Below are positions 3,461-21,935 of a stretch of DNA of 64,000 nt, in pieces. The position numbers and the translations under genes were made by a program. Source of the stretch: a virus. The DNA lies in the IMG/VR virus record IMGVR_UViG_3300044638_008494, positions 43,023-107,022 of that record; one strand, written 5' to 3'. Each line of letters begins with the position of its first letter. Position 1 is the stretch's first letter. The notes beneath the pieces are model-generated. The model saw only the letters and a program-made list of their open reading frames with translations. It was not told where the DNA came from and did not search any database.

Positions 3461-5263
3461 TTATATTTCAAATAATATATTTCCTCCATTTTTTATATAA
3501 AAAAGACTACTTGCTAAAAACTCATCTTCTAGCTCAATATAGTCTATATTATTTGTATACCTTACCCCATTAAGCCAAACAGATGATGTATTTTTTGCTA
3601 TACTATTTACATTAAATAATCTTCCAGAATCATTTAATACATATTTTATTTTAAAATTTTTATTAGCAATATTTTGTGTGGAAATTATATTATAACCAGA
3701 AGGAATGTTTCTTAATATTTTATTTGGCAGCTGATAGTCCATACCAGATGCAAGTAATTGTCCATTTAAAAAACATAATTTATTACTAAAATTAATATTA
3801 TTAATATTAGATCCGCTACTTATATTTCCAGTTACTATGTATTCTTGATTTGGCCAAGAATCAATTAAAATATTGCTCGTAGACAATTCAGAAGATATGC
3901 GATTGGTATATATGTATGCTCCGGTTGTAAAATAGTCTCTTGTTGGATTATAAAAAATTTGACCGCTGGAAACAATAGGATTATATGACTGTTCTTTTAT
4001 TTGTAATTGGCCGTTATAATAATACCCAGAAACATTTTGCAAATTATTAGAAAGGGTTGGCTTAAGTCGATTTGTATTATTTTCAAATATTGCATTTGAA
4101 TATCCAATATTGTCATCATATAAATTTGAACCAAGAATAAACAGCCTATCGCTATTATCAATTGAATTATTTAAAAATATATAATCTACATATTCTGTTA
4201 TATATTTATAATTAGAAGCTATAGGCAATTTATTAATAATAGTGTATTCAAGAACATAGCCAGATTCAAATTCAAAATTTCTAATTCCTGTTAGTGTTTG
4301 ACACACATTAACATTTATTGTTTGCGGCGTAAATCCACTTATTCCATTATTTGATACGCCTTGTAGAAATTCATTGTATATTTCATTGTTAAAATCATTA
4401 AGCTCTATATGGCTAGCAAAATATGTTGACTCATCTGTTAATTGAACAAACGATCCAGTCGTTTCTTGCCTAACGTAACACCTAACCAATTCAATAATTT
4501 CAGAATCAATAATGCCTGTCGTTCCGCTTATTAATCCAGTCAATATCTGATCTTGCAAATCTATAACGCTACCACTAATGAATGACTGCTCGTAATAAGA
4601 TTTATTAAAAACAGAAAGATCATAAATAAATATATCTGATATTTTTGCCTTCAATAAGTTCTTGCTGTTTTCAAAATTAATTCCACTGCCTAAAGTATAA
4701 TTATTAGAATAATTATTATTTATATCTCCGAATTGAACTGTTGATTTGTTAATAGATTTATTAATAGAACTATAACATCCAACCGAATAATTTATTGGAG
4801 ATATTTCACAATAAAAAATACCTGTTTTTGGAGCCTTGGCGTTATGACAATATGTTATTGGTCCAATAATATTATCATAATATTCTATATATGGAAAACC
4901 AAATGGACTTATTCCAAAATTAACTCCTGAATATGTTGAATTTGTTTTTCCAAAAGAGGAAATGAAAACGTTATTTTGTCCAGTAAAACTCTCTATTTCA
5001 TATGTCATTAGAAACGCAACATTTTGAGAATTTAAATTTCTAATTTTTGCAAAATCTTTATCTAAAAATCCAACCCCACTATATTTCCAAAAATTATTAG
5101 GATTAGCTATTTCTAAATTCAAAGATTGAGCAGACCATGCAGATCCAGATAATATTGACTTGCCGCTAACTCCACTTTCATTAAAATCAAAATATGCAAA
5201 AGCCGTATTTTTATTAAAAAACGGGTCTTTCTCTAAAAAAAACTGTGTAGATTTATTTGACAT
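3461..5263 (-). CDS. Virion structural protein, possible LamG/ConA-like N-terminal domain
   Basis: 600 aa; AYFDFNE start and beta-rich N/S/aromatic composition; repeated (Y/F/W)xNGx motifs in the C-terminal half; tail cluster. Confidence 0.45.
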   Translation of the reverse strand: MSNKSTQFFLEKDPFFNKNTAFAYFDFNESGVSGKSILSGSAWSAQSLNLEIANPNNFWKYSGVGFLDKDFAKIRNLNSQNVAFLMTYEIESFTGQNNVFISSFGKTNSTYSGVNFGISPFGFPYIEYYDNIIGPITYCHNAKAPKTGIFYCEISPINYSVGCYSSINKSINKSTVQFGDINNNYSNNYTLGSGINFENSKNLLKAKISDIFIYDLSVFNKSYYEQSFISGSVIDLQDQILTGLISGTTGIIDSEIIELVRCYVRQETTGSFVQLTDESTYFASHIELNDFNNEIYNEFLQGVSNNGISGFTPQTINVNVCQTLTGIRNFEFESGYVLEYTIINKLPIASNYKYITEYVDYIFLNNSIDNSDRLFILGSNLYDDNIGYSNAIFENNTNRLKPTLSNNLQNVSGYYYNGQLQIKEQSYNPIVSSGQIFYNPTRDYFTTGAYIYTNRISSELSTSNILIDSWPNQEYIVTGNISSGSNINNINFSNKLCFLNGQLLASGMDYQLPNKILRNIPSGYNIISTQNIANKNFKIKYVLNDSGRLFNVNSIAKNTSSVWLNGVRYTNNIDYIELEDEFLASSLFYIKNGGNILFEI

Positions 5264-5267
5264 ATTT

Positions 5268-6803
5268 TTATTCAGTATATACGTAAGTAAAACTTACTTT
5301 CCTACCATCAAGATCCTCATTTATAGTTTTTGCTGTTAAAATCGAAAGCTTATATTCATTTACAATTTGTTGTATAAAATTCAAAGTATCAATATACTTT
5401 CCACTTTCAAATGAGGCATTTCCCTGTATTTGTATTGTTTGTGGCTGCTCATGAGTTCCATAAGCGCTCCATTCAGAACAAAGTGGCTGTTTAAATTCAT
5501 ATTGCTGCAAAGAGTATGATTTTGTTATCCCATATGTTAAAGATTTTATATAGCACGGTATTACTGTATTTATCTTATTAATACTCCAATTACATTTATA
5601 AATTATTTTAGATGCAGACTCGCTATATGTAACGTTTTCCTGTGCAAGTTTAAAATATGATAAATTATAATCATTATTATTAAATTCATCTATGTTTTTT
5701 ATAAATTCATTTAGTGGGTTAAATTTAGTATTAAAATAATCAACAACGCGAGTGTATCTTTCGGATTGATTTCCAACTCTGCATGTTATTTCCGAGACCA
5801 TTTCTGCCGAATCTTGGTCGGCCTGTATATCGTATCCAAGATTAAAAGATGCCGTAGATTTGACAGCTATTATTGGACTATTATCATTATTGAATACTGC
5901 GTTGAATTCAATAGTGTTACTTTGCAAGTTCTCATTAACACCAGAAGTTAAATAAAATGAATTAAGATCTCCATTATTTGTACATCCACTATAAACATCA
6001 AAAGCCAAACTCCACAAATCTAAAGTTTTATATTGATTTCTTACATTTTGTATGTTATTTCCCAACCCGCCTTCGATACTTCCGTTAATACTAACCGTAG
6101 TAAAATTATCAAGATCTTTATTAATTGTATTGCTATATCTTATAATTCCAGTAACAATATTTGCTTGATCAAATATATAATCTTCTTTTATTGAATATGT
6201 TCCATTCAAACGATCTGAAAATTCTGAAATTGAAACAAGTGTTGGCAAATTATTATCATGAATATTAATAAAAGCAGGTTTAATAAAATTATTTAATCCA
6301 GTCCTTGAGTATACCCAGTTCCTTGCGTTATAAATTGCTGCGTTTTTATTAGTCACACCATTTGCCGAGACTGAGTGGCTTATATTTACGCTTCTATTAT
6401 TATTTTCTTCTACAACAAATTCATCTACAGGATTGGTTACAAAATGTTTTCCGCTAAACGATAATGGATCAAAAACTTCCACATTAACAGTAAATGGCAA
6501 AATATACGCATAGTTTGATTCATCAAAAGATATATCTCTAATAATAACATTATCGGCATTATAGATAATATTATTATCTTCTTTAATTTGAAAATTTTTG
6601 AAATTTTGCGCGAAATTACTTACCAACTGCTGCTGTTTTAATAACATGCCACTAAAACCCACACCACAGCCTACAATCTCCCCCTCTAAATTAAAAGTGT
6701 CAATAGATTGCCACCAACCATCACTTTCTCTATTAAAAGAGACAAATGGAGTGTAGCATATTCCACTAAATGCATTTTTATTATTATACCAAATTTCATT
6801 CAT
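5268..6803 (-). CDS. Tail protein, probable paralog of 6796-8367
   Basis: 511 aa; overlaps its neighbour; shares patterns with it (I..IS.D.SN, SH.V/L, E..D..N.T.S..E). Confidence 0.55.
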   Translation of the reverse strand: MNEIWYNNKNAFSGICYTPFVSFNRESDGWWQSIDTFNLEGEIVGCGVGFSGMLLKQQQLVSNFAQNFKNFQIKEDNNIIYNADNVIIRDISFDESNYAYILPFTVNVEVFDPLSFSGKHFVTNPVDEFVVEENNNRSVNISHSVSANGVTNKNAAIYNARNWVYSRTGLNNFIKPAFINIHDNNLPTLVSISEFSDRLNGTYSIKEDYIFDQANIVTGIIRYSNTINKDLDNFTTVSINGSIEGGLGNNIQNVRNQYKTLDLWSLAFDVYSGCTNNGDLNSFYLTSGVNENLQSNTIEFNAVFNNDNSPIIAVKSTASFNLGYDIQADQDSAEMVSEITCRVGNQSERYTRVVDYFNTKFNPLNEFIKNIDEFNNNDYNLSYFKLAQENVTYSESASKIIYKCNWSINKINTVIPCYIKSLTYGITKSYSLQQYEFKQPLCSEWSAYGTHEQPQTIQIQGNASFESGKYIDTLNFIQQIVNEYKLSILTAKTINEDLDGRKVSFTYVYTE

Positions 6804-8367
6804 CGTCTATAGAAGTTACAGAGAATTGTGCGGTTCTTTCCATTGGATTTATGGATAATGTAGCGGATGTTGTTATTTCGCCCTCGCCGCCTTCATACAT
6901 ATCTTCAGGAAAAGTATTTAAAATCGTTTCCTTATTATATTTTCTTATTTTTGTTTTTGTTATTTCCTTAAAAGATTTTTGTTGGTGAAATTGTCTAACT
7001 AATTTATTAGATATTTTATATTCATCAAACAATCTTACTGGATAATTTATTGATTTAGACGATACACTTTCAGTATATTCTCCTGATAAGTTTATGTTCC
7101 TATCAGAATATATTGCTGTATAATCAAGGTCGCCATTATACTTAGAAACTGTAAGTGATTTGTTTTTTAAATTTAAAATTGGCTTTTTAATTTTATTACA
7201 AGAAATATTTTTATCTATTAAAGCCTCATAAGCATCATATGCAGCTGGATATAGTAAATTTATTTTTTGCTCATATCCATATTTCATATTTTCATATTTT
7301 TCTTGCGAATTTAATGGCCCATGTCCTTTTATTTTTAAATTTACTTGCGATGCAGATTCATATGGATCCGCAAAATTCGTCGTTGCATCTAATATCCAAG
7401 AAAATCGTGATGATATAAACTTCTGATCAGAATATTTTGACTCTAATTGAATTCTTCCATCAAACCTATTGGCCTGATATCCTTGCGATACGGCAAATGA
7501 ATTAAGAGTTCCGCTCGTATAATTCTGATAAAATGACTGGCATCTTGAATATGATAACCCTGAAATGGATTTTAATTTATTTTTTGCTCCATCAAATCTT
7601 GGATCAGACAATCCCAGAATATCTGCAGTTTCTGTTACTTCTGATACGCCTTCTTCATTTCTTAACAAAGAATATGAATAAAATACATCAGCATCATTAT
7701 CTCCATTTATTGATTTTGAAAAACTTTCTTCAAAAGAAAAAGTTTTATTTATTAAATCATATGTTTCAGAATAATTTTTTTTAACTGAAAAAAAGTTATT
7801 ACCACCGCTTAATAAAAAAAATGGAACCTCTTTTCCTATTATTCCAGACGCTATAGATTTAGCTATATTGCTTGCCAAATTCCCAACCAAGGCATTATCG
7901 AATTCAATATTTAAATTATGACTGTATTCATAAACATTATTTCGATTCAAATTTAAATTAAAATTTTCAGAAAAATTTGTTATCAAAGACAATCTGTTAT
8001 CGTTGATAAAATTAGACATACCGGTGAAATATGCACCGGTCATATTATACAAATTACCTGTGGATCTAATAATTATATCTGCTGTATATTCTGCAGTTCT
8101 AACCCAATTAGAAGAATCTACGCTTATATTAGTTATATATCCAGAACCGAAATTATGGCCATTAATAATTATTTCACTTGTAGATTTTGATAAGTTAATC
8201 AAGTCATTCAGCCCACTAAAAACGCCACTAACACCTTGACTGTTTTGAAGGTCTAATAAGAGTCCTTGTATTTGTAAATTTTTTTCTATAGCATAATTCA
8301 ACCCATAATCTCCAAAGAATTTTGGACTATGCGTGTACGTTAGTAGAGTTGCATTATCAAAAATCAT
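6796..8367 (-). CDS. Tail protein immediately downstream of the tape measure (distal-tail position)
   Basis: 523 aa; synteny. Confidence 0.55.
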   Translation of the reverse strand: MIFDNATLLTYTHSPKFFGDYGLNYAIEKNLQIQGLLLDLQNSQGVSGVFSGLNDLINLSKSTSEIIINGHNFGSGYITNISVDSSNWVRTAEYTADIIIRSTGNLYNMTGAYFTGMSNFINDNRLSLITNFSENFNLNLNRNNVYEYSHNLNIEFDNALVGNLASNIAKSIASGIIGKEVPFFLLSGGNNFFSVKKNYSETYDLINKTFSFEESFSKSINGDNDADVFYSYSLLRNEEGVSEVTETADILGLSDPRFDGAKNKLKSISGLSYSRCQSFYQNYTSGTLNSFAVSQGYQANRFDGRIQLESKYSDQKFISSRFSWILDATTNFADPYESASQVNLKIKGHGPLNSQEKYENMKYGYEQKINLLYPAAYDAYEALIDKNISCNKIKKPILNLKNKSLTVSKYNGDLDYTAIYSDRNINLSGEYTESVSSKSINYPVRLFDEYKISNKLVRQFHQQKSFKEITKTKIRKYNKETILNTFPEDMYEGGEGEITTSATLSINPMERTAQFSVTSIDDE

Positions 8368-8369
8368 AT

Positions 8370-11300
8370 TTATGCAGTCTGACCATTTTTAGTTTGTAAT
8401 CCAGCAATTTGCCTATTAACAGCATCAATTGCCGATGCAAGTTCTGCTCTTAACTGCTCTTGAACTTCCGATATTTTTGCTCCAACCTCAGCAATTGCCT
8501 CTTCAGACATTGATACGTCTATTTTAAAATCAGTACTAATATCAACAGGAAAACTAATATCTTGATTTAAAGTCATTTCTTTTCCACCATCTTCTACTGG
8601 CTGCTGAGATACCTCTCTCTGTGGTGACTCTTGAACTTGCTTAGTTTGTTCTTCAACTATTCCACTATTTTTATTAACAGCCTCACGACTACCATCTAAT
8701 GACTTTTTCAATTCCCTTATTTCTTCTTTTCCTTGCTCGATATTTTTAGGAGGGGCCATCGGGGCTTGAGGCTCAACTCCGATTGGCGGTTTTGATTCTG
8801 GGTTAAAATTTGGATCATAATACCCTAATCCCCCATCTGGCTGTGGAAACATTTTCGGAGGAGGAAGCGTTGGTTTAGGAAATTGAGGAAAAGCTGGGCT
8901 TAACAAAGGAGACTGAGGTGTATATGGTCGAGTTAGTGGCCCACCAATTGGCTGCAATGGAGATTGGATTTGTGGATCCGCAAATTGACCAACCAAAGGA
9001 TTAACTCCTCGATTTGTAAATGGAGACGCAGTAGGTGGAACATATGGTGAAACTGCGGGGTTATTATAAGGAAAAGGCTTTGGAGCCTGAAGCGGCATAC
9101 CCACGCTACCAGCTCCACCCTCTCCGAAATTAGGATCATAAAATCCTTGACTTCCATCAGGCTGAGTAAATGTTTGCGGCGGAGGAAGCGTTGGTTTAGG
9201 AAATTGAGGAAAATTAGGTCTTGGCGTCAATACTTCTCGCATATTTTCCGCTGACCCACCCAACATAACAGATCCTTCTAGCGCACTTACTATCTTATCT
9301 CCATTTAAATCTATAGCACCTATCATTTTTATAGCAAATGGATTAAGAGAATTTTCTAAAACAGACTTTATAATCGGCATAACGTCAGTCGCCATTGTTC
9401 CATCTATACCCTTGTTTAACATACCATCTCTGGAAGCATTTGGGGCTTGATATGGCATTTGCGACAATAATGATGTTACATCATAAGTGTTTCCAGCCTT
9501 TAACTCATCTCTTAAATACTGTATTACTGATATCATTTTATCATCTGATATTTTTTGTCCAGCCAGTAATGCGTCAATTGAAGATTTTAATTGTTGCTGA
9601 AAATCATCGACATTTTTAATTTCAGAATTTGCATTCTGGCTCTTTTGTACGGCGAGCTGATTTACGGACCGACCAGTATCGGTCGCCTCCACTTTTAATT
9701 CGTTTTTCAAATATTTAGAAAAATTTTCTTTTAAACTATCCGCAAACTCTTTTCCATACTTATTCATAGCATCAACTGCCAATTTATTATTTGGATCTGC
9801 CCTCCATTGGGTTAACTGCTCTTTTGTCATTGATTGAGACCATTGGCCCGACATTCGACCTTCTTCATTAAACATTTGATGTGTTTGATATTTATCTCCC
9901 CAACTTAACAAATCAGCACCAGGATCATCTGGTCCGTAGTTGTATTTCCTACGAACTACATTTTGATAATTTTTTTCTTCAATTTCTTTTATTATTTCTT
10001 GAAATGATTTTCCTAATGGGCCACTTGATGCTCCTGATATGTTTGTATTCGGAAGTTTATTTAAAATTTGTTTTAGTATAGAAATATTTTGAGCTACAGC
10101 TTGGTCTTGCTGCGCTTGAGATGCTTCCATTGCTTTAGCGGCCGCTGGGCTTATAATTGTAAAATTTCCGCCACTAGAGCCGCCAACGCCACTAACACCA
10201 CCAACGCCGCCAGCACTACCAGCACCACTAACACTGCCAGTAGTAGCTGCTCCCCGCATTGCTGCTTTTATTGCACTTGCGGCTGCTGTGCTTGTTATTG
10301 GGGGATTTGTTGTGGCGCTTCCTCTAGCATTAGACTGCATACTAAATGCACCGCCAGAAGTTGATGGGCATAATGCATTAATAGCTGTTTGCGCACAATT
10401 TGCCAAATTTAGTAATTTTTCCGCAGCATTATCTGCTTCTTTTTGTAATCCAGTAAAGGCTTGTTGTGAAAATTTATCCATATTTATTCCCACATATCCA
10501 ATAGATTTAACCAGATCTTCAGCTGCTTGATTGAATGGGTTAGCAAATTTTTGCCCAGGCTTCATACCGCCAAACTGCTGATTAACCATATCAACCACAT
10601 TTGCTCGACCCAATCCCTTTAAATTACCCAAACCAATAGCATCAAGGTATTCATCGGATTGATCTTGCAACATTGCTGTTAATCTTGATCTTTCTCCTCT
10701 TTGGTAATTTTCTGGAATTCCAAGAGCTTCCATAGCTTCTAATCTTCTGATTGACTGTTCGCGCTCGAACTTGTCCATTTCTCTTTTATATTTTAATGGC
10801 CCAATTTCGCCAGCTTGGTATGCCCTACGAAGCTCAGTTCCCTCCATTTGTGTTGGGTCAAATCCTGATAATCCAGAAACCCCACCAGCATATCCTTGCA
10901 TTTTTTGCATGCGATCATTAAATCTACCAACTGCAATATCGAATGCCTGTTGAACTTTTTGTGCAGCATTGTTAAAATCTATATTTTGTAGCGCCTGTTT
11001 TAAATTAAAATTTGCATCTTCAAGGCTTTTCTCATATGCGTCCTGCAGCCCTTTAGGCAATTTTGATAAATCAATTTTTTGTATATCTTCTATAGTTACA
11101 GCTTTTGCAATTTGTTCGGATACATTTTGCAAATCTACAACCTCTCCACGGTTAGCAGATGTTGTTAAATCTGCATTTTTTATATTATCTTGCAATTGCG
11201 GAACAAATGATCCCTTTAATGTATCAGCCGCTTCTTTACTTGCTTCTATAAAATCAATATAACTTTGCTGATCAATTCTTGCTGCGCCAATTGCCGCTTC

Positions 11301-14300
11301 TTGTTCAAAAGATGGGGTTCTGTACTGCATAATCGCAGTATCAGTTTGCGTGGCTAAGCCTAAATTAAATTTAGGTATATCTATTTTTAAAATTTTATTT
11401 AAGCTTCCTATTAATTTTGCAGAATTATCAAGCGCGTTTTTATTTTTTCTAAAATTATTAATATAATCTTGAACTACTTGTGGCAATTGTGAAATATTTT
11501 TTCTACTCTGTTCTTCAAGTCGAAGAGTATTTTGATTTTCTTCTAAACGCTTTTTCAAATTTTTAGATAAATCTTCTGATAATCCTCTTAATTCTGCAGG
11601 TGATGCTTTTTTAAATGCTTCTTTTAATTTTTCAAGTTCTTCTGCGGTGCCTTCCCCGCCTTCTTTCAACATGCTTAAAATATTATCAAATTCTTCTCCA
11701 ATACGGACCGCGTCAAATCCTTTTAATTTTTCCACCGAAGGAATTACCTTGTTTAACATGTCTATGCGGCCCTTAGTATCAACATCTTCTCCACCGGCAT
11801 AATCAAATGTAGATAAAATAGAATCAGCAATTTTTTTAGATTGATCTTTTCCTATATTGGTCCATGATGTTATAAATTCTTTACCAATATCTGTAGTTAA
11901 CGATTCAATATTTGCACCTCTTGTTTGATCTTGTATATATTTAGCTAAAATTTCTTGCTGTTTTGCAACATCATTTGTCGCAGATATTTGGTTTTGTATG
12001 CTTGGTGGCAACTTTGATAATTGTCGCAAGTATTCATTTTCTGCTCTTGTTATATCTTTAATTGGGGCATTGGATTCAGTTAAATCACTTAATTTTTCTC
12101 TAGCTATTAGTAATCCTTGCGTAGACTCTTGTGCTCTTTGTGCATTTTCTGTTGCTTTTTGAACTCTTTGAGATGCATCGCCCAATCCATTTATAGATAA
12201 TGCTAGCGCATCTACAATTGGCTTTGCTGATAATGCAGCTCCAACTATTCCTCCTATTATTGCGCCTGGTGCTCCACCGCCAACTGCCGCGCCAGCCCCT
12301 GCAAAACCACCAATATTGCCTAATCCAGTCAAAAGTGACCCCGCAACTGTTTGATCTCCACCAGCTATCTGAGATCCTATTCCGCTTGCTGTTTGAAGGG
12401 CGAATCCCAACCCCAAACCTTTATTTTTTGCAAACTCATCAAACCTTTCTCTTTTAGTCAAGCTTCGTTTATTTATAGCAGATTGAATTGTTGCTGCTCT
12501 TTCTTCAGATTTGGCCTGATCTCTCGCTACACGCTCTCTTCTTTTTTCCCTTTCTATTTGACCAGCCATTCCAGTATCTGTCCATGTCCCTGCTTGGGCA
12601 TTATATAATGTAGGATTTTGTCTGGCTGTATTTTCCTGAATATCTAATTTTTGCAAAAGCTTGTTTTGCCTATTTATTCTTTGCTGGTTAGATTCAAATG
12701 CTTGATCTAATGTTTGTCCGGTGGATTTTAGTTCTCCTTTTAATTTTCTTAATTCTTTTGCTCCATCATCCAGCTGTCCTCCAAAAAATGCTAGAGAAAA
12801 TAGCAATCCAGAAATTGATGCTGAAATTGCTGTAAAATCTGTTGCTCCAGAGGTGAAATTTGTTGCTCCAGAGGTGAAATTTGTTTCATTATCTCCTGCG
12901 GCAAAATTTGGAATGAATCCAGAAGAGGCCAATAATCCAGCACCTTTCTGCATCTCTGCAGAATCCTTCATGGCGCGATTTTTTCCACCATGTTGGCGCA
13001 TAGCTGAGGCAAACGAAGGCTGACTTTTATTTCTTACGTGCAAGAATGGCTTATCATCTATTACGGCTTTTTTTCCAGAAATAGATTCTTCTAAAGCAAT
13101 AACTTCTTTGACATACTGATCTGATTTTGCAAAATTTGGTATAAAACCAGAAGCTGCCATATCAGAAGTTTTGCGTATATTTTGATTATAATTTCTTAAT
13201 TCTTTTATGGCCATTGGGCTACTAGCCAGCGACTGCAAATCCTTATCTGATAAGCCCAACTCTTTTGCTCCTTGAACAAGTGGCTTGTATTTTAAATCTC
13301 CGATCTTAATTGCGTCCAGATTAAATCCAGCATTAGATTTAGATCCGTACAGCAGTTCTTTAAATTTATTTAACTTGTCTGGCGTTCCAAGTTTTAACAA
13401 CGATCCTTGCTGTATTCTTGCCAAGGCAGATTGTGCCGCAGATCTTTCTCCAAGGGTAGCGCCGCGCTTCATCAATTCTTGAATTGCTTGTATATTTACA
13501 AAATTTGGTATAAAACCAGAAGCAAATTTACCAACATTCGGCTGACTTTCAGATGCAATCCTCTTAGCCATATGTCCAAATACTATTGGGTCAATAAGCC
13601 CTACTTTATTTGTTTTTATTAAACCTTCTGGAGAAATTCCACCTTCGCGCGCCTGTATTTGCGCTTCTTTTGGAAGTGGGCGCATAAATGTAAAATTCGC
13701 TGATGAGGCAGTATCTAAAGCTAATGCTTGCAACCAATTTGGCTTTTCGCTTACAGACCTTTTTGCACTCTCAAATCTTGAATTGACAATAGCAATTAAA
13801 GATTTTTCTACCTCATAATCGTTAATTTCATCTTTAAATGTATTACCAGCAAATCTTTGCGATGTTACCAATGAGTTACCAGAGACTCTTCTTAAAGGCA
13901 ATAATTGTAAATTTGAATCAGTTTTTTTTAGTTGCCTTGTAGCTTTTGCCCAATCTATTGAACCAATATCTCTTAATTTACCTCTTTGTTGCATTGGGGA
14001 CTTGTAATCTAAAGTCGGTAATTTTAGAACTTTACTTCCGGTTTTAAACGCATGAGATTCTGCCCCACTGCCTAGATATTGTAAATCAGGATATTGTTGA
14101 TATAATTTATTTATACGCTTTTCAACTGCTGGTTTTTGTTTAATCTCCTCAAAATTAAACGAACTCTTATTTCGTATTTGCTCTAAAATTGGGCTATCTG
14201 CAAAATTTGGTATAAACCCACTTGCCATAGCAAACATCCCTTGCTGGTTTGGATATTTTTTTGCAAATATTGCTCCTAATTTTGCTACAATATCAGGATC

Positions 14301-17300
14301 TCTTAAAGCTTCTTGTGGCAATCTATTCTTTTTGACAAAGTCTTTAATCCATTGTGCTTGAAATTTATTTCTTCCAGCCATCATTGGATTTGCTGCAAAT
14401 GCTGGAATAAAACCATCGGCAGCGCCAGAAGATTGTAACGCTGCCATTCTTTTCTCTACTTCTATTTCAAACTGTGATCGCGCTCCTCCCCTTCTAAGAA
14501 CTAGCCCTTCTTTTCTAATACTTTCAATAGCTTTTATTCTAAGAGCCTGAACTTTTCCAAAACCAGGCCCACTTTTTACTTGTTTAACTGCACCAGGTTT
14601 TGCTTCGTTGAGTAATTTTTGCATTACTTCATTAGTTGCACCCGATGAGCTTTTTGCATCATACATTCCAGGCGCACCATGAAATAATTTTCTTAATCTT
14701 GGCGTTATTCTTTCTTGTCTAAAATCAATACCAGCATTTTGAGAAGTTTTTTGTAAGCCTTGCTGAAGTAAAGTAATTAATCCACCCTCGAAGGCAACGC
14801 CAACGGCACCCTCTGCTGCTCCATAGTTAGGAAGATCTTTTGGTGATTTTAAAAAGTTTTCACCTCCTAAAACTTGTCCGAATTGATTCGCCTCACGAAC
14901 AAGTAGGTCGCCTAAATTTTTTTTCAAATCAGGGAGCTGGCCTTTAATAACATCTTTATTAATTCCAGCAACCGGTATTAGCCCTTTGTATTTTTTGCCA
15001 AGATACGAACCAGCGCCCGGTGCCATTGTGTAACCTTCAGAAATATTAGGATAAATAAGAGATACAACCTTGCCATTTAATGCTTTAGATGTTCTCGTAT
15101 CACCAAGATCAATAATTTCATCGCCTTCCTTTGATGATTTGGCAAAATTTGGTATAAAACCAGAAGCTGCATTTGGAACAACCAATTTATAATTGCTTGG
15201 CATAAAAATATTATCCTTTTGTGGAGGATTTTGTTTTTTGCTTTTTCCGTAATTAGTTTCAATAACTTTAGAAATTAAATTATCGTTGTCTATTGTTCCA
15301 AATTTCACCTCGCCCACTGGTTTTCCTTTTGAATTTAATAGGTCCATTCTTGCAGTTTTTGATTCTGCAACTTGCAAACCAAGACGATTCGCAGCAAATC
15401 TCTCGAAATATTTACCAACAAGATCATTTTTTACCCCAGTGAATTGTCTGTCCTTATTAACTAATTTTGTATTGCCAGATAATAAGCTAGGAACCTTTTC
15501 TTTATTTGTGAGCAAATTTTGTTTTAACTGGCCAATTTGTTTTATAGAATACCCATTTCTTGTAAAATATTTAACAGCAGTCTCTGATAGCTTTGAATCT
15601 TTGGAATTTAAATTATTTAATTGTTTATCAAATTGATTTTCAAATGAAGATCTACTACCAATCGAAATAATATCAAATGAAAATGGAGAATATGTATCTA
15701 AACCCTTATTTGCTACTTGAGATGATTGTACTCCAGTTATAGTACCACCTGGCAAAGATTTTTTATTTTTTGGTTGTGCGAAATTTGGCACAAACCCAGA
15801 TGCAGATATTTTTTTAGCTCCATCAGGTAGACCATATTTGCTTTTCATTTCCCTATTCCATACAGCAGTTCCATCACCACCACCATAATTAGGAACAGCC
15901 CATTCTCCAGTATGAGCCACCATTGTCCCCTTTTTATTATTTCCCATTGGGAAATTTTTCATTACAACTGGTCTATCTTTTGCTGGATTTGCGTCACCAA
16001 CTCTATTATTAATATTATTTTGCTCTGCTGCTAGATGCGGCAAAAAGCCACCAGCCGCAGTTTTAACCTTAGAACCTCTTTGTGTTATAAAAGATTTTCC
16101 ACCCACGTTTTGCACACCAACTTGAGACGCTGTTGTTTTTGCTATCTGTGCTGCTATAGAATTTTGCTTTTGCAACTCTATGGTTTGCTGCTTTACAATT
16201 TCTAAATATGCTTTTGCCCCAGAAGCAACAGAGGCTTGGCCGCTAGATATTGCCTTGTATATACTAGCATTATTTTGTAAAAATTTTACAACACTTTGCT
16301 GTATTACTGCTTGTTCTTTAGCTGCTTGATTTACCCCTAAAATACTTTTAAAAGCTTCAACACCATATCTAGAAAATTCTGCAAATAGTTTAACTACCGC
16401 TGCCGTTACCAAAGCAAGCCCTGGTCCGCCAATAAAATTTCCAATTCCGCTTATTATTCCGCTACCAATTTTTGCACCAATACTATCAGCATCAACATTG
16501 TTCACGGCACCAGTGAGAAATTCAGAAATATTTAAAACATTTTTTGCAGCTGGCTCAAAAAGTCCACCAGCAATATTTCCTCCAGCTTGCTGTATATTTG
16601 CCAAGGCACGCGTACCTCTAGCAGAAAGTGTTTCATTTAATTTTTCATTACGCCTTATGGCCTGATCAGTAGTTCCAAGTGATGTTTTTAAAGCTTGGTC
16701 ATATATTGAATATTCCTTACCAAGATCTCCCAGCGCAGCTTTTAATACGTTAATTTGGAATACACCGCCAACCTGCTCAGCTACATAGTTTTTTTGCGTT
16801 GCAGATAATCCATCGTAAACACTAGCAAGTTCTTTCAATAATTGTACTTGCGTTTTTACATTACCCTCGGCATCTGTAGATTGTATGCCTAGCCCACCCA
16901 AAACTTCTTGTGTTTTTTCTCTACCAAGTCTTGTAAATATAGTTTTTAATGAGTTACCTATAACAGCACCGCCTCGAGCCGTAACTTGTTGCGCGGTGGT
17001 TACTAAAGCGATCAACTCATCAAAAGAAATTCCAGCATCATCAGCGGAAGATCCAACGCGGCTAAGTGCGTTTGCTAAATCCGCAGAACTAACAGCAAAA
17101 GCAGCATCAACGTTAGCTAGTTTATTTACAATTTCAGTTGCTTGTAGCGCAGATCCCCCAAACGAGTTGATTGCGGCTGTTAATGCAGATACGCTAGCGG
17201 CGGCATCCAATCCACTTAAACGTGTTAAGATCAAAGCCGCTTCTGTTCGCTTTAATGTTTCTTCTACCCCAAGACCTTGACGAGAAAGTTCCGTAGCAGC

Positions 17301-17696
17301 TTCGGCAACCACATCAAACGATTGCGCTGTGTTCCCAGCGATATCGAATAATGAAGCTCCAAATTTCGCTAAATTTCTATCTGTCAAATTTAACAGAACA
17401 TTAACATCTGCTAATTTTTTTTCTACATTTACAAATGTATTAAATAAAGAAGTAACAGCGCTTTGTATCGCAAAGATTGCACCAGCAGATGCAGCAAAGG
17501 CAATAACGCGCGCGTTCGCTGCGGCCAAAGACTTGTCGATTTCTTGTATTTGACCGCTAATTTTGCCCAATGGCTGTGCTGCGCCACCTGCTGTTTGAAT
17601 ATTTAGAGTAACACCTTGCTTGGCAACCTGATCAATTTGCCGCCTAAGTTTCGCGGTATTACCATCAACATCTACTCTGATATTTGGATTAGCCAT
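8370..17696 (-). CDS. Tail tape measure protein with internal motif-delimited cargo domains
   Basis: 3108 aa; TP901-type N-terminus (AATELSRQGLGVEETLKRTEAALILTRLSG...IVNKLANVDAAFAVSS); Ala/Gly-rich hydrophobic segments; follows tail tube and chaperones. Confidence 0.93.
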   Translation of the reverse strand: MANPNIRVDVDGNTAKLRRQIDQVAKQGVTLNIQTAGGAAQPLGKISGQIQEIDKSLAAANARVIAFAASAGAIFAIQSAVTSLFNTFVNVEKKLADVNVLLNLTDRNLAKFGASLFDIAGNTAQSFDVVAEAATELSRQGLGVEETLKRTEAALILTRLSGLDAAASVSALTAAINSFGGSALQATEIVNKLANVDAAFAVSSADLANALSRVGSSADDAGISFDELIALVTTAQQVTARGGAVIGNSLKTIFTRLGREKTQEVLGGLGIQSTDAEGNVKTQVQLLKELASVYDGLSATQKNYVAEQVGGVFQINVLKAALGDLGKEYSIYDQALKTSLGTTDQAIRRNEKLNETLSARGTRALANIQQAGGNIAGGLFEPAAKNVLNISEFLTGAVNNVDADSIGAKIGSGIISGIGNFIGGPGLALVTAAVVKLFAEFSRYGVEAFKSILGVNQAAKEQAVIQQSVVKFLQNNASIYKAISSGQASVASGAKAYLEIVKQQTIELQKQNSIAAQIAKTTASQVGVQNVGGKSFITQRGSKVKTAAGGFLPHLAAEQNNINNRVGDANPAKDRPVVMKNFPMGNNKKGTMVAHTGEWAVPNYGGGDGTAVWNREMKSKYGLPDGAKKISASGFVPNFAQPKNKKSLPGGTITGVQSSQVANKGLDTYSPFSFDIISIGSRSSFENQFDKQLNNLNSKDSKLSETAVKYFTRNGYSIKQIGQLKQNLLTNKEKVPSLLSGNTKLVNKDRQFTGVKNDLVGKYFERFAANRLGLQVAESKTARMDLLNSKGKPVGEVKFGTIDNDNLISKVIETNYGKSKKQNPPQKDNIFMPSNYKLVVPNAASGFIPNFAKSSKEGDEIIDLGDTRTSKALNGKVVSLIYPNISEGYTMAPGAGSYLGKKYKGLIPVAGINKDVIKGQLPDLKKNLGDLLVREANQFGQVLGGENFLKSPKDLPNYGAAEGAVGVAFEGGLITLLQQGLQKTSQNAGIDFRQERITPRLRKLFHGAPGMYDAKSSSGATNEVMQKLLNEAKPGAVKQVKSGPGFGKVQALRIKAIESIRKEGLVLRRGGARSQFEIEVEKRMAALQSSGAADGFIPAFAANPMMAGRNKFQAQWIKDFVKKNRLPQEALRDPDIVAKLGAIFAKKYPNQQGMFAMASGFIPNFADSPILEQIRNKSSFNFEEIKQKPAVEKRINKLYQQYPDLQYLGSGAESHAFKTGSKVLKLPTLDYKSPMQQRGKLRDIGSIDWAKATRQLKKTDSNLQLLPLRRVSGNSLVTSQRFAGNTFKDEINDYEVEKSLIAIVNSRFESAKRSVSEKPNWLQALALDTASSANFTFMRPLPKEAQIQAREGGISPEGLIKTNKVGLIDPIVFGHMAKRIASESQPNVGKFASGFIPNFVNIQAIQELMKRGATLGERSAAQSALARIQQGSLLKLGTPDKLNKFKELLYGSKSNAGFNLDAIKIGDLKYKPLVQGAKELGLSDKDLQSLASSPMAIKELRNYNQNIRKTSDMAASGFIPNFAKSDQYVKEVIALEESISGKKAVIDDKPFLHVRNKSQPSFASAMRQHGGKNRAMKDSAEMQKGAGLLASSGFIPNFAAGDNETNFTSGATNFTSGATDFTAISASISGLLFSLAFFGGQLDDGAKELRKLKGELKSTGQTLDQAFESNQQRINRQNKLLQKLDIQENTARQNPTLYNAQAGTWTDTGMAGQIEREKRRERVARDQAKSEERAATIQSAINKRSLTKRERFDEFAKNKGLGLGFALQTASGIGSQIAGGDQTVAGSLLTGLGNIGGFAGAGAAVGGGAPGAIIGGIVGAALSAKPIVDALALSINGLGDASQRVQKATENAQRAQESTQGLLIAREKLSDLTESNAPIKDITRAENEYLRQLSKLPPSIQNQISATNDVAKQQEILAKYIQDQTRGANIESLTTDIGKEFITSWTNIGKDQSKKIADSILSTFDYAGGEDVDTKGRIDMLNKVIPSVEKLKGFDAVRIGEEFDNILSMLKEGGEGTAEELEKLKEAFKKASPAELRGLSEDLSKNLKKRLEENQNTLRLEEQSRKNISQLPQVVQDYINNFRKNKNALDNSAKLIGSLNKILKIDIPKFNLGLATQTDTAIMQYRTPSFEQEAAIGAARIDQQSYIDFIEASKEAADTLKGSFVPQLQDNIKNADLTTSANRGEVVDLQNVSEQIAKAVTIEDIQKIDLSKLPKGLQDAYEKSLEDANFNLKQALQNIDFNNAAQKVQQAFDIAVGRFNDRMQKMQGYAGGVSGLSGFDPTQMEGTELRRAYQAGEIGPLKYKREMDKFEREQSIRRLEAMEALGIPENYQRGERSRLTAMLQDQSDEYLDAIGLGNLKGLGRANVVDMVNQQFGGMKPGQKFANPFNQAAEDLVKSIGYVGINMDKFSQQAFTGLQKEADNAAEKLLNLANCAQTAINALCPSTSGGAFSMQSNARGSATTNPPITSTAAASAIKAAMRGAATTGSVSGAGSAGGVGGVSGVGGSSGGNFTIISPAAAKAMEASQAQQDQAVAQNISILKQILNKLPNTNISGASSGPLGKSFQEIIKEIEEKNYQNVVRRKYNYGPDDPGADLLSWGDKYQTHQMFNEEGRMSGQWSQSMTKEQLTQWRADPNNKLAVDAMNKYGKEFADSLKENFSKYLKNELKVEATDTGRSVNQLAVQKSQNANSEIKNVDDFQQQLKSSIDALLAGQKISDDKMISVIQYLRDELKAGNTYDVTSLLSQMPYQAPNASRDGMLNKGIDGTMATDVMPIIKSVLENSLNPFAIKMIGAIDLNGDKIVSALEGSVMLGGSAENMREVLTPRPNFPQFPKPTLPPPQTFTQPDGSQGFYDPNFGEGGAGSVGMPLQAPKPFPYNNPAVSPYVPPTASPFTNRGVNPLVGQFADPQIQSPLQPIGGPLTRPYTPQSPLLSPAFPQFPKPTLPPPKMFPQPDGGLGYYDPNFNPESKPPIGVEPQAPMAPPKNIEQGKEEIRELKKSLDGSREAVNKNSGIVEEQTKQVQESPQREVSQQPVEDGGKEMTLNQDISFPVDISTDFKIDVSMSEEAIAEVGAKISEVQEQLRAELASAIDAVNRQIAGLQTKNGQTA
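8860..9213 (-). repeat. Duplicated Pro-rich block in the tape measure C-terminus (FPQFPKPTLPP)
   Basis: Identical 33-nt copies at 8860-8892 and 9181-9213, each followed by QPDG..G.YDPNF. Confidence 0.9.
12840..12881 (-). repeat. 21-nt in-frame tandem duplication (TNFTSGA x2)
   Basis: tgttgctccagaggtgaaatt at 12840-12860 and 12861-12881. Confidence 0.9.
12900..16058 (-). repeat. Eight dispersed (A/S)(S/D/G)GF(I/V/L)P(N/A/H)(F/L)(A/V) peptide motifs in the tape measure
   Basis: Copies at ~16031-16058, 15777-15806, 15141-15170, 14394-14423, 14199-14228, 13497-13526, 13128-13157, 12900-12929. Confidence 0.9.
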
Positions 17697-17766: not shown

Positions 17767-18753
17767 TCAGCTCTTGCTAGCCAATTCGTATATTCCCATG
17801 CTTCCCTTTGTTTGGGATTCAGAAATTATTTTATCTCCCAATATATCACCGCCAGCAATGCTTTTAACGTCATCCCTATCTCCAAATAAGAAAGTAGATC
17901 CCTTATTTCCTTTTTTATTTTTACTGGTAGATTCTACTCGTTTCCTATTCTTTAAAGATTCAAGCCATTGATCTAATTTATCGGGGTTATCGTAAACCCC
18001 ATCTGGAATTTCAGCGTCAGAGTTTTTAATTATATTTTGATAATATTTCCCCCAAATTAAAACTTCATGCTGATTTTTTGTTAGTTTTATTACTGGCTTT
18101 CCAAACACTTCCATAGATGTGCTCCCTATATACAAGATATTTTGAAAATGATGAGATATGGCTGTTTTTTTTATTATTTTAGAAGAGAAATCGGATAAAT
18201 ATTTAAAATAGTAATATGTTGCCCAATCTAAGATATTTTCAGACTCTTCATCTAGATTTTTATTAAATAATAACTCTTTTAAATCTTCATTTTTAAATAA
18301 AAAATTTTGCAAGAAAAAATCAGAAGTTTTTTTTGTGGCCCACTCCTCTGATGTCATTACGATAAAGGATGATCTTTCTTTATTTAACTTATCTAATTTT
18401 TCATGCTCAGAATTAACTTGCTCGTCAATACGCTTTTTATCAGAATCATAGATTAGTTTTGATCTTGTTGTATTTAATCTATTAATTGTTGATTTTAATA
18501 TTCGAATTTGATTCTCTTTTTCTTCACTCCACCACCCATATTTGGATGCAAGCGCCACCTGATCTTCTTCTCCAAGTATTCCATTAACGCTGGCTTCATT
18601 TAAAAATCTATCATAAATATCTCTTATCTGAAGAGACTCTGATTGGGTTAAATGCTTTAAGTATATTTTTCCGTAATTTTCTATTTGGTATACGGAATAG
18701 CCATTAGATATATCTTCAAAAACGGCCAATACATCAACACTTTGGCCACTCAT
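17767..18753 (-). CDS. Putative tail assembly chaperone
   Basis: 328 aa, charged/helical, directly upstream of the tape measure. Confidence 0.55.
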   Translation of the reverse strand: MSGQSVDVLAVFEDISNGYSVYQIENYGKIYLKHLTQSESLQIRDIYDRFLNEASVNGILGEEDQVALASKYGWWSEEKENQIRILKSTINRLNTTRSKLIYDSDKKRIDEQVNSEHEKLDKLNKERSSFIVMTSEEWATKKTSDFFLQNFLFKNEDLKELLFNKNLDEESENILDWATYYYFKYLSDFSSKIIKKTAISHHFQNILYIGSTSMEVFGKPVIKLTKNQHEVLIWGKYYQNIIKNSDAEIPDGVYDNPDKLDQWLESLKNRKRVESTSKNKKGNKGSTFLFGDRDDVKSIAGGDILGDKIISESQTKGSMGIYELASKS

Positions 18754-18762
18754 AATGTTAGT

Positions 18763-19539
18763 TTATTCCTCGCTTGGCTTTGTGTCTTCTATTTTATTTT
18801 CTTTATTTTCTTCAGTATCAGCGGCAGTACTGTCATCTGCTGATCGATTTGACCCAGAATCGCTATCTTTAAAATCTTGCCAATTCGAGATTCTGTTTAA
18901 AAACCAAAGCGTAATTAAATAATTAAATCTTTGACCAACCTTTATAATAAAGGCTTCATCTTCATTGTCTGGATCAAGCTGATCATACCAGTCCAGCATT
19001 TCATCGTAATTTTCACCATTAAAAAACTGCTCGTCTTCGCTTTTATAAGCTAATTGTGTTAACCACCATTGGATGGTTGCATTTCTTGCCTTAGCCTCTG
19101 CCGTATTTTCAAAAATGTAAATTTGCTCAAGCTCAAATGTTTGAATCTCCCTTTTTGATTCTTCAATTTGCAATTCAAGTTTTGCTTTTTGAAGTTTTTG
19201 TTTATTATCTAATTCGGGCAATTGGTTTAATTTGTTCAACTCGATACTTGATTCAAAAAATGTTCTTTTGGCTTTAGTATAATCCTCTGCTTCAGAGTTT
19301 GAAATTGTTCCTCCTAAGTTTTCTAAAATAGTATTCCAAGCGGCTTTTGGCAATAGGCCAGCCTTAACAAAGCTCGCTAACTGTTTTGCGTATTCAACTT
19401 CGCCAAGTTGCCGCAAGCTTCTTGATGGTTTTAAAATATAAAATCTTTTCTCTTCATTCTTATTGTTTTTAGCAATGAATGAGTAAATCCATTTTTTAGT
19501 ATCAAAGTCCGGTTTATCCTGCACATCATTATTATTCAT
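18763..19539 (-). CDS. Putative tail assembly chaperone
   Basis: 258 aa, coiled-coil, between tail tube and tape measure. Confidence 0.55.
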   Translation of the reverse strand: MNNNDVQDKPDFDTKKWIYSFIAKNNKNEEKRFYILKPSRSLRQLGEVEYAKQLASFVKAGLLPKAAWNTILENLGGTISNSEAEDYTKAKRTFFESSIELNKLNQLPELDNKQKLQKAKLELQIEESKREIQTFELEQIYIFENTAEAKARNATIQWWLTQLAYKSEDEQFFNGENYDEMLDWYDQLDPDNEDEAFIIKVGQRFNYLITLWFLNRISNWQDFKDSDSGSNRSADDSTAADTEENKENKIEDTKPSEE

Positions 19540-19544
19540 ATTTA

Positions 19545-19784
19545 TTACTTTCTATTATTATCATCATTAATAAACAAAAAATCAAAATTTTCTAATTCTT
19601 TTGTTATATCTCTTATTGTATTATTTCCGTGATCAAGAATTCTCTTTCTAATTTTTTGAAATTCTTCATCTGACATGCGGCCATCAGCTACAATATCTTC
19701 TAATACATAGATAAAAGACAAAAAAAGCCTAGTCACAGACTTTTTAATATATCCGAGTACAAATTCTTTTATATTAAATTTCAC
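19545..19784 (-). CDS. Hypothetical protein (GTG start)
   Basis: 79-aa ORF filling the gap after a TGTAAT motif. Confidence 0.6.
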   Translation of the reverse strand: MKFNIKEFVLGYIKKSVTRLFLSFIYVLEDIVADGRMSDEEFQKIRKRILDHGNNTIRDITKELENFDFLFINDDNNRK

Positions 19785-19811
19785 CTTTAAAAACCTTTTA
19801 CCTTACATGGT

Positions 19812-19817
19812 ATTACA
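19812..19817 (-). promoter_or_regulatory. Putative late promoter motif TGTAAT
   Basis: Immediately downstream of the tail-tube terminator, upstream of 19784. Confidence 0.55.
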
Positions 19818-19826
19818 CCATAAAAT

Positions 19827-19858
19827 AAAAAAAGGGGCAGAAACTGCCCCTTTTTTTT
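19827..19858 (-). terminator. Intrinsic terminator after the tail tube gene (bidirectional)
   Basis: A7-GGGGCAG-aaa-CTGCCCC-T8. Confidence 0.85.
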
Positions 19859-19877
19859 GAATTTATTTTGTTTATAA

Positions 19878-20987
19878 TTATACCAAAGCAGCTGCTGGAA
19901 AACTTCCAGACAAGAAGATACCACGTTGATTATCTTCTGGGCCACCAATTGGAACTTCAAAACTTGCAGTTAGCGTAGCATTGTCTCCGATTGATGTTGA
20001 CAAGCTTTGACTTACAAGCTTAGCACCTTTAAGTGTTGCGCTCATTGCCAAATCTCCTGCACCAGAGCAGTCGATCTTCTTAAGCTTTAAGGTTAAATCG
20101 TATACTCCAGTATCGCAAAGAAGGCTAGAAATATTTCCATCTGAAAGATTTCCAACTTCAGCATCTATATCTAGCGTAGCTGTAACTGGAAAGTCAATTT
20201 CTCTAGCAAATGAGAAGCGGCTTCCCAATTTGTTCAATGGCGTTCTTGCTAAATCAAAACTCATGGTTGCTGATTGAACTTTCAAGTCAGAAGCTGAGTA
20301 CCCAATGATTCCAGTAATATCGATAGTAGCATCGCCTGGAAGAAGTGCTGTTGGTTGTGCGCCATAAGCGTTTGTTTTGTGCTGAGGCAATCTGAATGCC
20401 TGTGACGTAATTGGCAATCCATTTACTGGATTAACAGCAGGAACATCGTTATTACCATCAACTGATGAGTAAATTCTAGCATTAAGTGCTTCCAAATCAA
20501 CTGTAGCTGTTGGAATATCGCCCACTGCAACATTCAAGCTATATGAAGTAACATAACTATTTCCAACACCAACAACTCCGGTTACCCCTGCATAGTTTGA
20601 TGCGTCACTACCTTCAGATGCGACTAAAAGATATAGATTTTTTTCGTCGGTTGTCTTTTGAAGAATATCTTTTAAGCATGAAACTTGTGCTTGGGTTCCT
20701 GTAGCAACAGTTAGTCCTAGCAATTTTTCATTTAAACCATCTGTTACATAGTAAGATAAGCTTGCTGAAACTGTTGGGGCTTCTGTGTCAAGACGATCAA
20801 TTGCTGCAAGATTTCCAAATTGGTTAATATCTTGTAGATTTCTTGTGAAATCTGAATCAAATGATTGAACACGGGTAAGCTGTTTGATATCAGCTGATCC
20901 GGTTTGCGCCACTCTAGCACCGTTTGTTCCAGTAGTTTGGCTTGCGAATACTCCTAGTGATTGATATATAATGCGATTTCTGCTCAT
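19878..20987 (-). CDS. Major tail tube protein
   Basis: 369 aa; MSRNRIIYQS...RVQS...INQFG pattern; own promoter motif and terminator; follows head-tail genes. Confidence 0.75.
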   Translation of the reverse strand: MSRNRIIYQSLGVFASQTTGTNGARVAQTGSADIKQLTRVQSFDSDFTRNLQDINQFGNLAAIDRLDTEAPTVSASLSYYVTDGLNEKLLGLTVATGTQAQVSCLKDILQKTTDEKNLYLLVASEGSDASNYAGVTGVVGVGNSYVTSYSLNVAVGDIPTATVDLEALNARIYSSVDGNNDVPAVNPVNGLPITSQAFRLPQHKTNAYGAQPTALLPGDATIDITGIIGYSASDLKVQSATMSFDLARTPLNKLGSRFSFAREIDFPVTATLDIDAEVGNLSDGNISSLLCDTGVYDLTLKLKKIDCSGAGDLAMSATLKGAKLVSQSLSTSIGDNATLTASFEVPIGGPEDNQRGIFLSGSFPAAALV

Positions 20988-21028
20988 AATTTTATATTTT
21001 ATTTAAATAAAGTGTTATTCTTATACTA

Positions 21029-21034
21029 ATTACA
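21029..21034 (-). promoter_or_regulatory. Putative late promoter motif TGTAAT (tail tube)
   Basis: TGTAATTAGT upstream of 20987. Confidence 0.55.
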
Positions 21035-21062
21035 TTTAAAAAGCCCAAAAAGCCAATTTTTT

Positions 21063-21935
21063 TTAATTTATTCGCGGCTCTCTAACGTAACTTAAAGTAA
21101 AATCTGCAAATGCCCCATAAGAGTTATTTCCTACTAGTTTATTAACTGAAGGGGCAAATTTAGATATCGTTACGGAAGAGACTAGTGCCATTAAACTTCC
21201 TGTTTGGGAATATTGATGGCATAAATTTAAATAATTATAATTCTGATTTTTATAATCCCCATATATATTAAATGGCATATCTTTAGGGTGCAAAACAGGA
21301 AAATATTTCCTAGCCATATCTGTTGCGATTGAAACGCCAGCATCTAGTAAGTATGGTGAATCTGCCAAAAATATAGTTCTTATATTAACTACGCTTTCAT
21401 CTAATCCACCGAACGCGAAAGGTTGATTTTCTGTATATTGTGTTTTAACAAAAATAGCCGGATATGTTAACTGGTCATAACTTAATGGCGTTTTAGCATC
21501 ACTTCCAAAAGAGTCATTTGGTCTTACCGGATATTTAGATTCAAATATTAGAGTATCATCTTGAGATTCAGTATAGTATACATTATATTCTTTATAGGCA
21601 TATGAGCATTTTACACTCGATAATGATGTTGATAATGTGTTGTTAAAAATCGCTCTTCCCAATTCATAATCAATGTAAAGACCACCTGTTGTTTTTGGAT
21701 TAAAGGTATTGTTTATGTAAACGCCAGATGGTATATTTGCTCCATTTATTGAATAATCAGAAACAAATTGTCTGTACGGACTGGCATAAATTGTTTTATT
21801 AGAAAAATTTGGATCTTGCGTGTTATATAAATTTCCACTATTGACGTTTATATATGCAGACCCTTTTCTTAAAATTTCATGGTCAATGAAATGTGTAAAG
21901 CTCGGCGCAATTCTATTTAAAAATTGAGGTACCAT
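21063..21935 (-). CDS. Putative tail terminator/completion protein
   Basis: 290 aa; YPAIFV...PFAFGG motif; just upstream of the tail tube. Confidence 0.5.
   Translation of the reverse strand: MVPQFLNRIAPSFTHFIDHEILRKGSAYINVNSGNLYNTQDPNFSNKTIYASPYRQFVSDYSINGANIPSGVYINNTFNPKTTGGLYIDYELGRAIFNNTLSTSLSSVKCSYAYKEYNVYYTESQDDTLIFESKYPVRPNDSFGSDAKTPLSYDQLTYPAIFVKTQYTENQPFAFGGLDESVVNIRTIFLADSPYLLDAGVSIATDMARKYFPVLHPKDMPFNIYGDYKNQNYNYLNLCHQYSQTGSLMALVSSVTISKFAPSVNKLVGNNSYGAFADFTLSYVREPRIN

Follow-up and report, generated by a model that had tools for sequence, protein, structure and literature searches.

A predicted minimal kinase-like module, probably a divergent relative of Kinase-PolyVal, carried as a cassette in the tape measure protein of an uncultured lake phage

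The enzymes with which phages take over a host are usually seen as early gene products or as head-packaged proteins, e.g. T4 Alt and the N4 virion RNA polymerase. The T7 kinase gp0.7 (PF27024, Phage_T7_kinase) acts on host proteins early in infection; it is expressed after DNA entry and is not carried in the virion. Outside phages, OspG, NleH and HopBF1 are ready-made proteins delivered into eukaryotic cells by the type III secretion system, and RIO and Bud32 proteins have roles in ribosome biogenesis and KEOPS, respectively. In this study we examined a kinase-like block which, unlike gp0.7, sits inside a tape measure protein (TMP). The protein, of 3,108 amino acids (aa), is encoded by an uncultured lake phage within a window of 64,000 nucleotides, the whole stretch of DNA analysed here (positions 43,023 to 107,022 of the IMG/VR record IMGVR_UViG_3300044638_008494; coordinates below are those of the window, with the strand in brackets). 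Our results point to a model where the block is a minimal protein kinase-like (PK-like) domain, a divergent relative of the Kinase-PolyVal family and one swappable cassette of the TMP; the chances of the full account, including injection and phosphotransfer onto host proteins, seem to us evenly balanced.

Kinase-PolyVal (PF18762) comprises minimal Ser/Thr/Tyr-type kinase domains found in polyvalent proteins that phages and conjugative elements encode (Iyer, Burroughs, Anand, de Souza, Aravind 2017, PMC5512222). These domains have lost the entire C-terminal subdomain with their active-site residues intact, and are marked by a Glu located N-terminal to strand 2, a Gln in the N-lobe's final strand and an insertion that separates the conserved His and Asp of phosphotransfer; they are found chiefly in (pro)phages of Bacteroidetes and Verrucomicrobia (PMC5512222). 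By analogy with T7 gp0.7, the same authors proposed that PolyVal kinases are injected and act on host proteins (PMC5512222). A carrier of the kind described here is unusual, with one experimental precedent: gp96 of the Thermus phage P23-45 is a 5,002-aa TMP shown experimentally to be fused to a virion RNA polymerase (RNAP), whose action on the entering genome comes ahead of the synthesis of any phage protein (Chaban et al. 2024, PMC10770324). The two systems are alike in that a cytoplasm-acting enzyme (predicted in our case) is built into a giant TMP. They differ in that gp96 has a two-barrel RNAP at its N-terminus, a single fused enzyme and no motif-fenced cassette array, and in that the RNAP is proven by experiment and the present module is predicted. 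The sequence-only reading that preceded this work had called an injected kinase-fold domain unusual. As an idea it has precedents in the proposal of Iyer et al. (PMC5512222) and the enzyme-TMP fusion of P23-45 (PMC10770324); what does stand as new is a TMP-borne branch that is invisible to hidden Markov models (HMMs), predicted injected phage kinases being known already.

The block occupies 13527-14198 (-), TMP residues 1167-1390; it starts right after the motif GFIPNFA (aa 1160-1166, 14199..14219 (-)) and ends three residues before GFIPNFV (aa 1394-1400, 13497..13517 (-)), both located by motif scan. Taken up to the second motif, the kinase-like module comprises aa 1167-1393 (13518..14198 (-)), numbered 1-227 hereafter; the AlphaFold2 (AF2) model, the structure matches and six homologous modules place its core at approximately block 36-217, with some 35 residues of short helices before it. 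Five kinase-type motifs had been picked out from the letters alone, YLGSGAESHAF, KVLKLP, LVTSQRF, LDTASSANF and VGLIDP, and the translation contains them in that order within this one motif-bounded block. The carrier open reading frame (ORF), 8370..17696 (-), is a single uninterrupted frame of 3,108 aa. Because its first ~440 residues match PhageMin_Tail (PF10145, E 6.7e-29; core at TMP aa 121-311, 16764..17336 (-)) as well as nine PHROG tape-measure families, the carrier is, by sequence homology, a real TMP, and the earlier placement of the block inside a tape measure holds.

A four-sequence alignment (A3) served as input to AF2, and the resulting module model reached pLDDT 84.2 and pTM 0.78, with four of the five models at 75 or above. 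The predicted N-lobe consists of three strands, two helices and two further strands: strands at block 40-44 and 48-53 surround G43-S-G45 in the Gly-rich loop between strands 1 and 2, strand 3 (56-61) contains K59, and the last strand carries Q114. The remainder is predicted as a hinge, a long helix, the loop with D162 and N168, a short strand F-T-F, a two-helix insert, a strand (199-201) followed by D203, and one last helix. A bilobal kinase-like fold, on which the sequence-only reading had made its case depend, is therefore what the model contains, and the Foldseek comparison it had proposed against the protein-kinase-like superfamily agrees: 38 PDB matches were obtained at E <= 1e-3, and all those listed are PK-like, among them PRPK/Bud32 (4e-5), APH(2''), Rio1/2, NleH, CDC7 and COQ8A. 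A further comparison by VIA-align gave Z values of up to 7.8. In a VIA-align scan independent of Foldseek, over 48,161 representative chains, the entire top 50 was PK-like; it included Rio1 (1zp9; Z 7.4, rmsd 4.8, 170 residues aligned), TkArkI, which is an archaeal tRNA kinase, and two minimal effector kinases, OspG and HopBF1. Matches in BFVD were mixed: some are annotated protein kinases, part of them from phages, and they stand beside small uncharacterized phage proteins. Among them are "Protein kinase" entries from Pantoea and Enterobacter phages, which we take to be T7-type kinases. Like the block, the secreted effectors OspG, NleH and HopBF1 are kinase folds of ~150-200 residues restricted to the catalytic core, and they appear among the structural matches; no specific sequence kinship between them and the block was detected. 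In our view, the predicted structure makes it very probable that the block adopts a PK-like fold, in which the N-lobe has five strands and helices and little more than the catalytic core is left of the C-lobe.

Conservation among homologues concentrates on the same residues. An exhaustive HMMER search of 1.84 billion representative proteins returned only four relatives, at 31-34% identity; one further homologue came from a word-indexed search and another from IMG/VR loci, so that only six homologous modules were found in all in the representative proteins and IMG/VR together. Other searches added nothing to this set: tblastn of the block against GenBank phages gave no match, a profile search of viral contigs gave nothing with alignment A2 and only two already known records with A3, and a profile search of genome and metagenome contigs with A3 gave nothing. 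The six-sequence alignment, at ~30% identity, has 22 invariant positions, 12 of which fall within the 39 positions of the motifs named beforehand (Fisher p = 2.9e-5), so the pattern seen in the single sequence goes beyond chance. Invariant residues within these motifs include G45, E47, K59, Q114, D162, N168 and G200-L-I-D203. The Gly-rich ATP loop YLGSGAESHAF (block 41-51, 14046..14078 (-)) lies between predicted strands 1 and 2, with G45, E47 and F51 invariant; K59 (14022..14024 (-)), in the V-L-K of strand 3, is the Lys expected there, and Q114 (13857..13859 (-)), in the last N-lobe strand, is paired by hhalign with the PolyVal Gln. The catalytic-loop equivalent D162-TASSA-N168 (13695..13715 (-)) is followed by the invariant strand F-T-F; its Dx5N spacing is one residue longer than the usual Dx4N, as had been read from the sequence. 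Between this loop and the metal-binding Asp lies a two-helix insert of 25 residues (13611..13685 (-); helices at block 177-185 and 190-196), 19-25 residues long in the homologues according to the spacing table. The DFG-equivalent G-L-I-D (block 200-203, 13590..13601 (-)), supported by the alignment and the PDB profile search, is invariant at all four positions and ends in D203, the putative metal-binding Asp. N168 and D203 are separated by 29-35 residues, compared with ~12 in the PolyVal members fetched. After D203 only 17-25 residues remain to the end of the module, so the C-terminal substrate-binding subdomain is absent.

Where, then, does the block belong? Three hallmarks of Kinase-PolyVal, the Glu, the Gln and the loss of the C-terminal subdomain, are present in it as E47, Q114 and the short tail after D203. 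We compared by hhalign the profile of the block family, after trimming the long N-terminal extension of one homologue, with a profile of 11 PF18762 members, and obtained a score of 29.3 (P = 8e-4); column-shuffled controls had a mean of 12.5 +/- 2.2 and a maximum of 20, so that none of the 150 came up to it. Under relaxed settings the aligned region continues through the conserved Trp and Gln. The block profile scored 17.4 against APH (P 0.1) and 14.4 against Pkinase; for comparison, the PolyVal profile itself scored 24.8 and 18.3 against the same two. Because these hallmarks are present and the score to PolyVal exceeds those to APH, Pkinase and the shuffles, the block is best placed, as far as profiles can tell, as a divergent sister of Kinase-PolyVal and not as a member by that family's own HMM. 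Both share a PK-like core lacking the C-terminal subdomain with the ATP-binding and phosphotransfer residues kept, the Glu before strand 2 (GAE[SQ]), the Gln of the final strand in the N-lobe and, beyond strand 3, a conserved Trp. Both also belong to multi-module phage proteins for which entry into the host together with the DNA is predicted, bear traces of cassette-like recombination and occur in overlapping phage lineages, relatives of the TMP being binned with metagenome-assembled genomes (MAGs) of Flavobacteriales and Verrucomicrobiales. They differ at the catalytic loop, which reads LD-x5-NFTF in the block, with no His, and EDLHDEN in PolyVal; in the helical insert of 19-25 residues that the block has between this loop and the metal-binding Asp; and in the carrier, which here is a TMP fenced by GFIPNFA motifs, the 2017 paper being without any mention of tape measure proteins.

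Other neighbours were seen as well. Among 30 named ESM-Atlas neighbours, the Phage_T7_kinase set dominates with 14, followed by Kinase-PolyVal with 2 and Pkinase with 1; Phage_T7_kinase is carried by only 17% of the members in the cluster shown. The best PDB profile match, non-significant (E 0.3), is to APH(2''), in one alignment over the ATP loop and Lys and in a second over IDFG, and the same enzyme has the highest sequence identity among the structural matches (17-20%). Both observations would suit a small-molecule kinase of the APH/Kdo type, which would phosphorylate a host metabolite, a signalling nucleotide, an antibiotic-like compound or an envelope sugar. Enzymes of the APH type, however, bind their substrate by a helical C-terminal subdomain, exactly the part absent from a module with so few residues after D203, and the hhalign score to APH falls well short of that to PolyVal; an envelope target is further disfavoured by a periplasm without ATP. 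We regard a small-molecule substrate as quite improbable.

A number of results weigh against reading the block as a PolyVal-like kinase domain. Searches of the block against Pfam, PHROG and PDB sequences gave no significant kinase match, and Pfam at E <= 10, with four family members as queries, gave no kinase-family match, RIO1/Bud32 included. The PF18762 HMM (27-bit cut-off) misses the block and its homologues even at E <= 10 and finds nothing in the genome of the window or in five related records, and the hhalign alignment to PolyVal is confident only over the N-lobe region of the ATP loop and Lys (36 columns), with a probability of 25%. The same HMM does find members in 16 of 401 sampled Bacteroidota genomes, and from these the members for the profile comparison were taken. 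Structure scores are middling, with the best Z at 7.4-7.8 and TM at 0.3-0.45, and Z < 8 can reflect common arrangements; moreover, the AF2 model was built on four sequences. In the catalytic loop, the window and three homologues have Dx5N and two have Dx4N, the spacing near-universal in kinases, and no His precedes the catalytic Asp. The helices at block 68-79 and 83-93, where the Glu of helix αC would be sought, both lack an invariant acidic residue; the best candidate, position 73, is E in four of six sequences, G in the copy of the window and R in one homologue.

Could these points mean that there is no kinase fold at all, AlphaFold having over-interpreted kinase-like motifs in a shallow alignment of what is a filler domain of the TMP? 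The four-sequence input, the structural Z below 8 and the lack of a significant kinase-family sequence match all go in that direction. As an informal control, a second kinase-motif cassette from related TMPs (K2, see below) was folded in the same way and gave pLDDT 36; therefore, AF2 does not draw confident kinase folds from motifs alone. The top 50 of the Foldseek-independent scan is also PK-like throughout, and three model-free lines agree with the fold: the invariance of the hallmark residues, the hhalign result with PolyVal and the kinase neighbours in ESM-Atlas. In our reading of the model, the weight of the structural evidence lies in the uniform match lists and in their agreement with the residue evidence, not in the Z-scores, and we consider the filler-domain explanation highly improbable. 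A pseudokinase or nucleotide-binding module is a more serious contender: a PK-like fold without phosphotransfer, which would act as a binding or decoy domain (e.g. by tying up a protein or nucleotide of the host) or be a folding unit within the TMP. It would account for the lack of a conserved αC Glu, with Gly at position 73 in this very copy, for the Dx5N spacing and the missing HxD histidine, and for the lost substrate-binding C-lobe. Nevertheless, K59, D162, N168 and D203 are kept in every copy at ~30% identity, as expected for catalysis, and pseudokinases usually lose at least one of them; the related Kinase-PolyVal was described with its active-site residues intact (PMC5512222), and the minimal effector kinases OspG and HopBF1 are among the structural matches. 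Both of these effectors are active enzymes. A catalytically dead module thus appears unlikely to us, and from the sequence we lean towards a real phosphotransfer or ATPase activity.

The carrier places this domain in a modular setting. The motif GF[ILV]P[NHA][FL][AV] occurs in eight copies at TMP aa 550-1600 (window 12900-16049 (-)) and divides the middle of the protein into seven modules, of which the kinase-like block is the fifth. All seven are Cys-free and basic (pI 9.6-10.2; 9.8 for the kinase-like module). Related TMPs have three to seven such modules, and an all-against-all comparison sorts these into families that recur in different orders. Of the roughly 14 related TMPs examined, only about 6 have the kinase-like cassette; it occupies position 5 of 7 in the window, 2 of 3 in P0003, 2 of 5 in P0005 and 3 of 4 in L003, and its neighbours differ from case to case. 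Every homologous module is flanked by GF[IV]PNF-type motifs and lies inside a TMP-like protein or a fragment of one. A literature search found no paper in which tape measure proteins are connected with kinases or with polyvalent proteins, nor any with the GFIPNFA motif.

This distribution bears on whether the module could serve the virion itself as an ATPase switch of the RIO/Bud32 type, in which ATP hydrolysis would drive or time TMP translocation, channel formation or DNA entry with no modification of host proteins. Rio1 and PRPK/Bud32 are the best structural matches (PRPK by its Foldseek E-value, Rio1 by its Z over 170 residues); they are similarly small and lack an activation segment, and we take their ATP loop to be of the GxGxE[AS] type, like GSGAES of the block. 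RIO and Bud32 proteins act mainly as ATPases, and a module permanently tethered in a translocating protein would fit such a role. RIO kinases also have a flexible loop and an N-terminal RIO-specific helix. Yet the block shows no sequence-level match to either group and has its own insert before the DFG-like Asp, its nearest sequence-profile relative being instead the conflict-associated PolyVal kinase; and a core mechanical function is hard to square with a cassette that only under half of the related TMPs examined have and that trades places freely with unrelated modules. An ATPase switch is, in our estimate, distinctly unlikely.

Under the PolyVal-type reading, a route into the host may be sketched. 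The module would bind ATP/Mg2+ and transfer (or hydrolyse) the γ-phosphate. The TMP carrying it would leave the tail ahead of the DNA and reach the cytoplasm, as the TMP-fused RNA polymerase of P23-45 must, the module being extended or partly unfolded while it passes through the tail lumen. Such unfolded transit must be assumed because a folded 25-kDa domain does not fit three abreast in the tail tube, which is a further burden on the proposal. Once in the cytoplasm, the module would refold, possibly after release at the flanking motifs, and could then phosphorylate host proteins before phage gene expression, like T7 gp0.7 in purpose and unlike it in timing. In its boldest form, the proposal would make this a kinase family existing only as a TMP cassette, freed at the GFIPNFA joints and, seconds after adsorption and ahead of all reading of phage genes, phosphorylating host proteins of defence, transcription or translation; this we hold to be possible but doubtful.

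Further observations concern the cassettes of these proteins. Module 1 of the TMP in the window (15798-16028 (-), aa 557-633), with a GTMVAHTGE...VPN...GLP.GAKKI stretch, is by eye present in all related TMPs inspected, just before the first clean GF[IV]PNFA motif, and looks like a constant part rather than swappable cargo. The K2 cassettes form a second family in related TMPs (L002:6547-7125 (+), L007:6178-6753 (+) and P0007 aa 205-418), with GxGxxGxFY...VK, a DLHGSN (Dx4N) loop and IIDAG; hhalign against the Pkinase profile gives P = 2.5e-4, and at the pLDDT given above AF2 offers no confident fold. In P0007, K2 directly precedes a homologue of the kinase-like cassette of the window. Other cassettes resemble enzymes by eye: one of P0005 (aa 1369-1549) has an R-S-E-type pattern reminiscent of ADP-ribosyltransferases, and in P0006 (aa 430-1277) a P-loop (GAAGSGKT) precedes a HIGH-type nucleotidyltransferase signature, with weak Pfam matches (PF25199, E 0.0036; PF16581, E 0.041). 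For the kinase-like block itself, the only Pfam line was LepB_N (E 0.047; 13.7 bits against a cut-off of 25), which we discarded as noise. The PF18762 genes detected in Bacteroidota (L022-L041) are open frames of ~210-237 aa, several with an in-frame stop or split in two.

The window derives from a 107-kb IMG/VR record, ~70% complete and with ~33% G+C. The TMP ORF lies within a run of minus-strand ORFs, and a capsid-like match to PF25209 ~6 kb upstream is weak (E 0.0036, short of the Pfam cut-off). On the two sides of the TMP, ten large ORFs (1-8367 and 17767-23926 (-)) gave no PHROG match at E <= 1e-3, and the six of them scanned against Pfam gave none at E <= 0.01; by these sequence searches, the structural module of this phage is largely unannotatable. 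Within the TMP, the C-terminal 1,500 residues, with an acidic pI of 5.3, contain its only two Cys, and Gly-rich hydrophobic segments occur at aa 417-439, 1620-1640 and 1804-1835. Relatives of the N-terminal domain on genome contigs (L013-L021) have 42-51% identity; their contigs are binned in MAGs of Flavobacteriales/Flavobacteriaceae/Flavobacterium type (5), of proteobacterial type (3) and of Verrucomicrobiales (1), which is a host hint only, as the binning of phage contigs is unreliable.

Overall, the block illustrates how far the trimming of a kinase can go, being a natural example with ~180 core residues, and its small, self-contained module should be easy to express and assay. If the proposal is true, a kinase carried in the TMP acts before transcription and is invisible to defences that sense early expression, and the tail lumen serves to deliver ready-made enzymes, the set of which can change. 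Since the family is invisible to Pfam and PHROG models, many more effector domains may lie hidden in the giant TMPs of uncultured aquatic phages.

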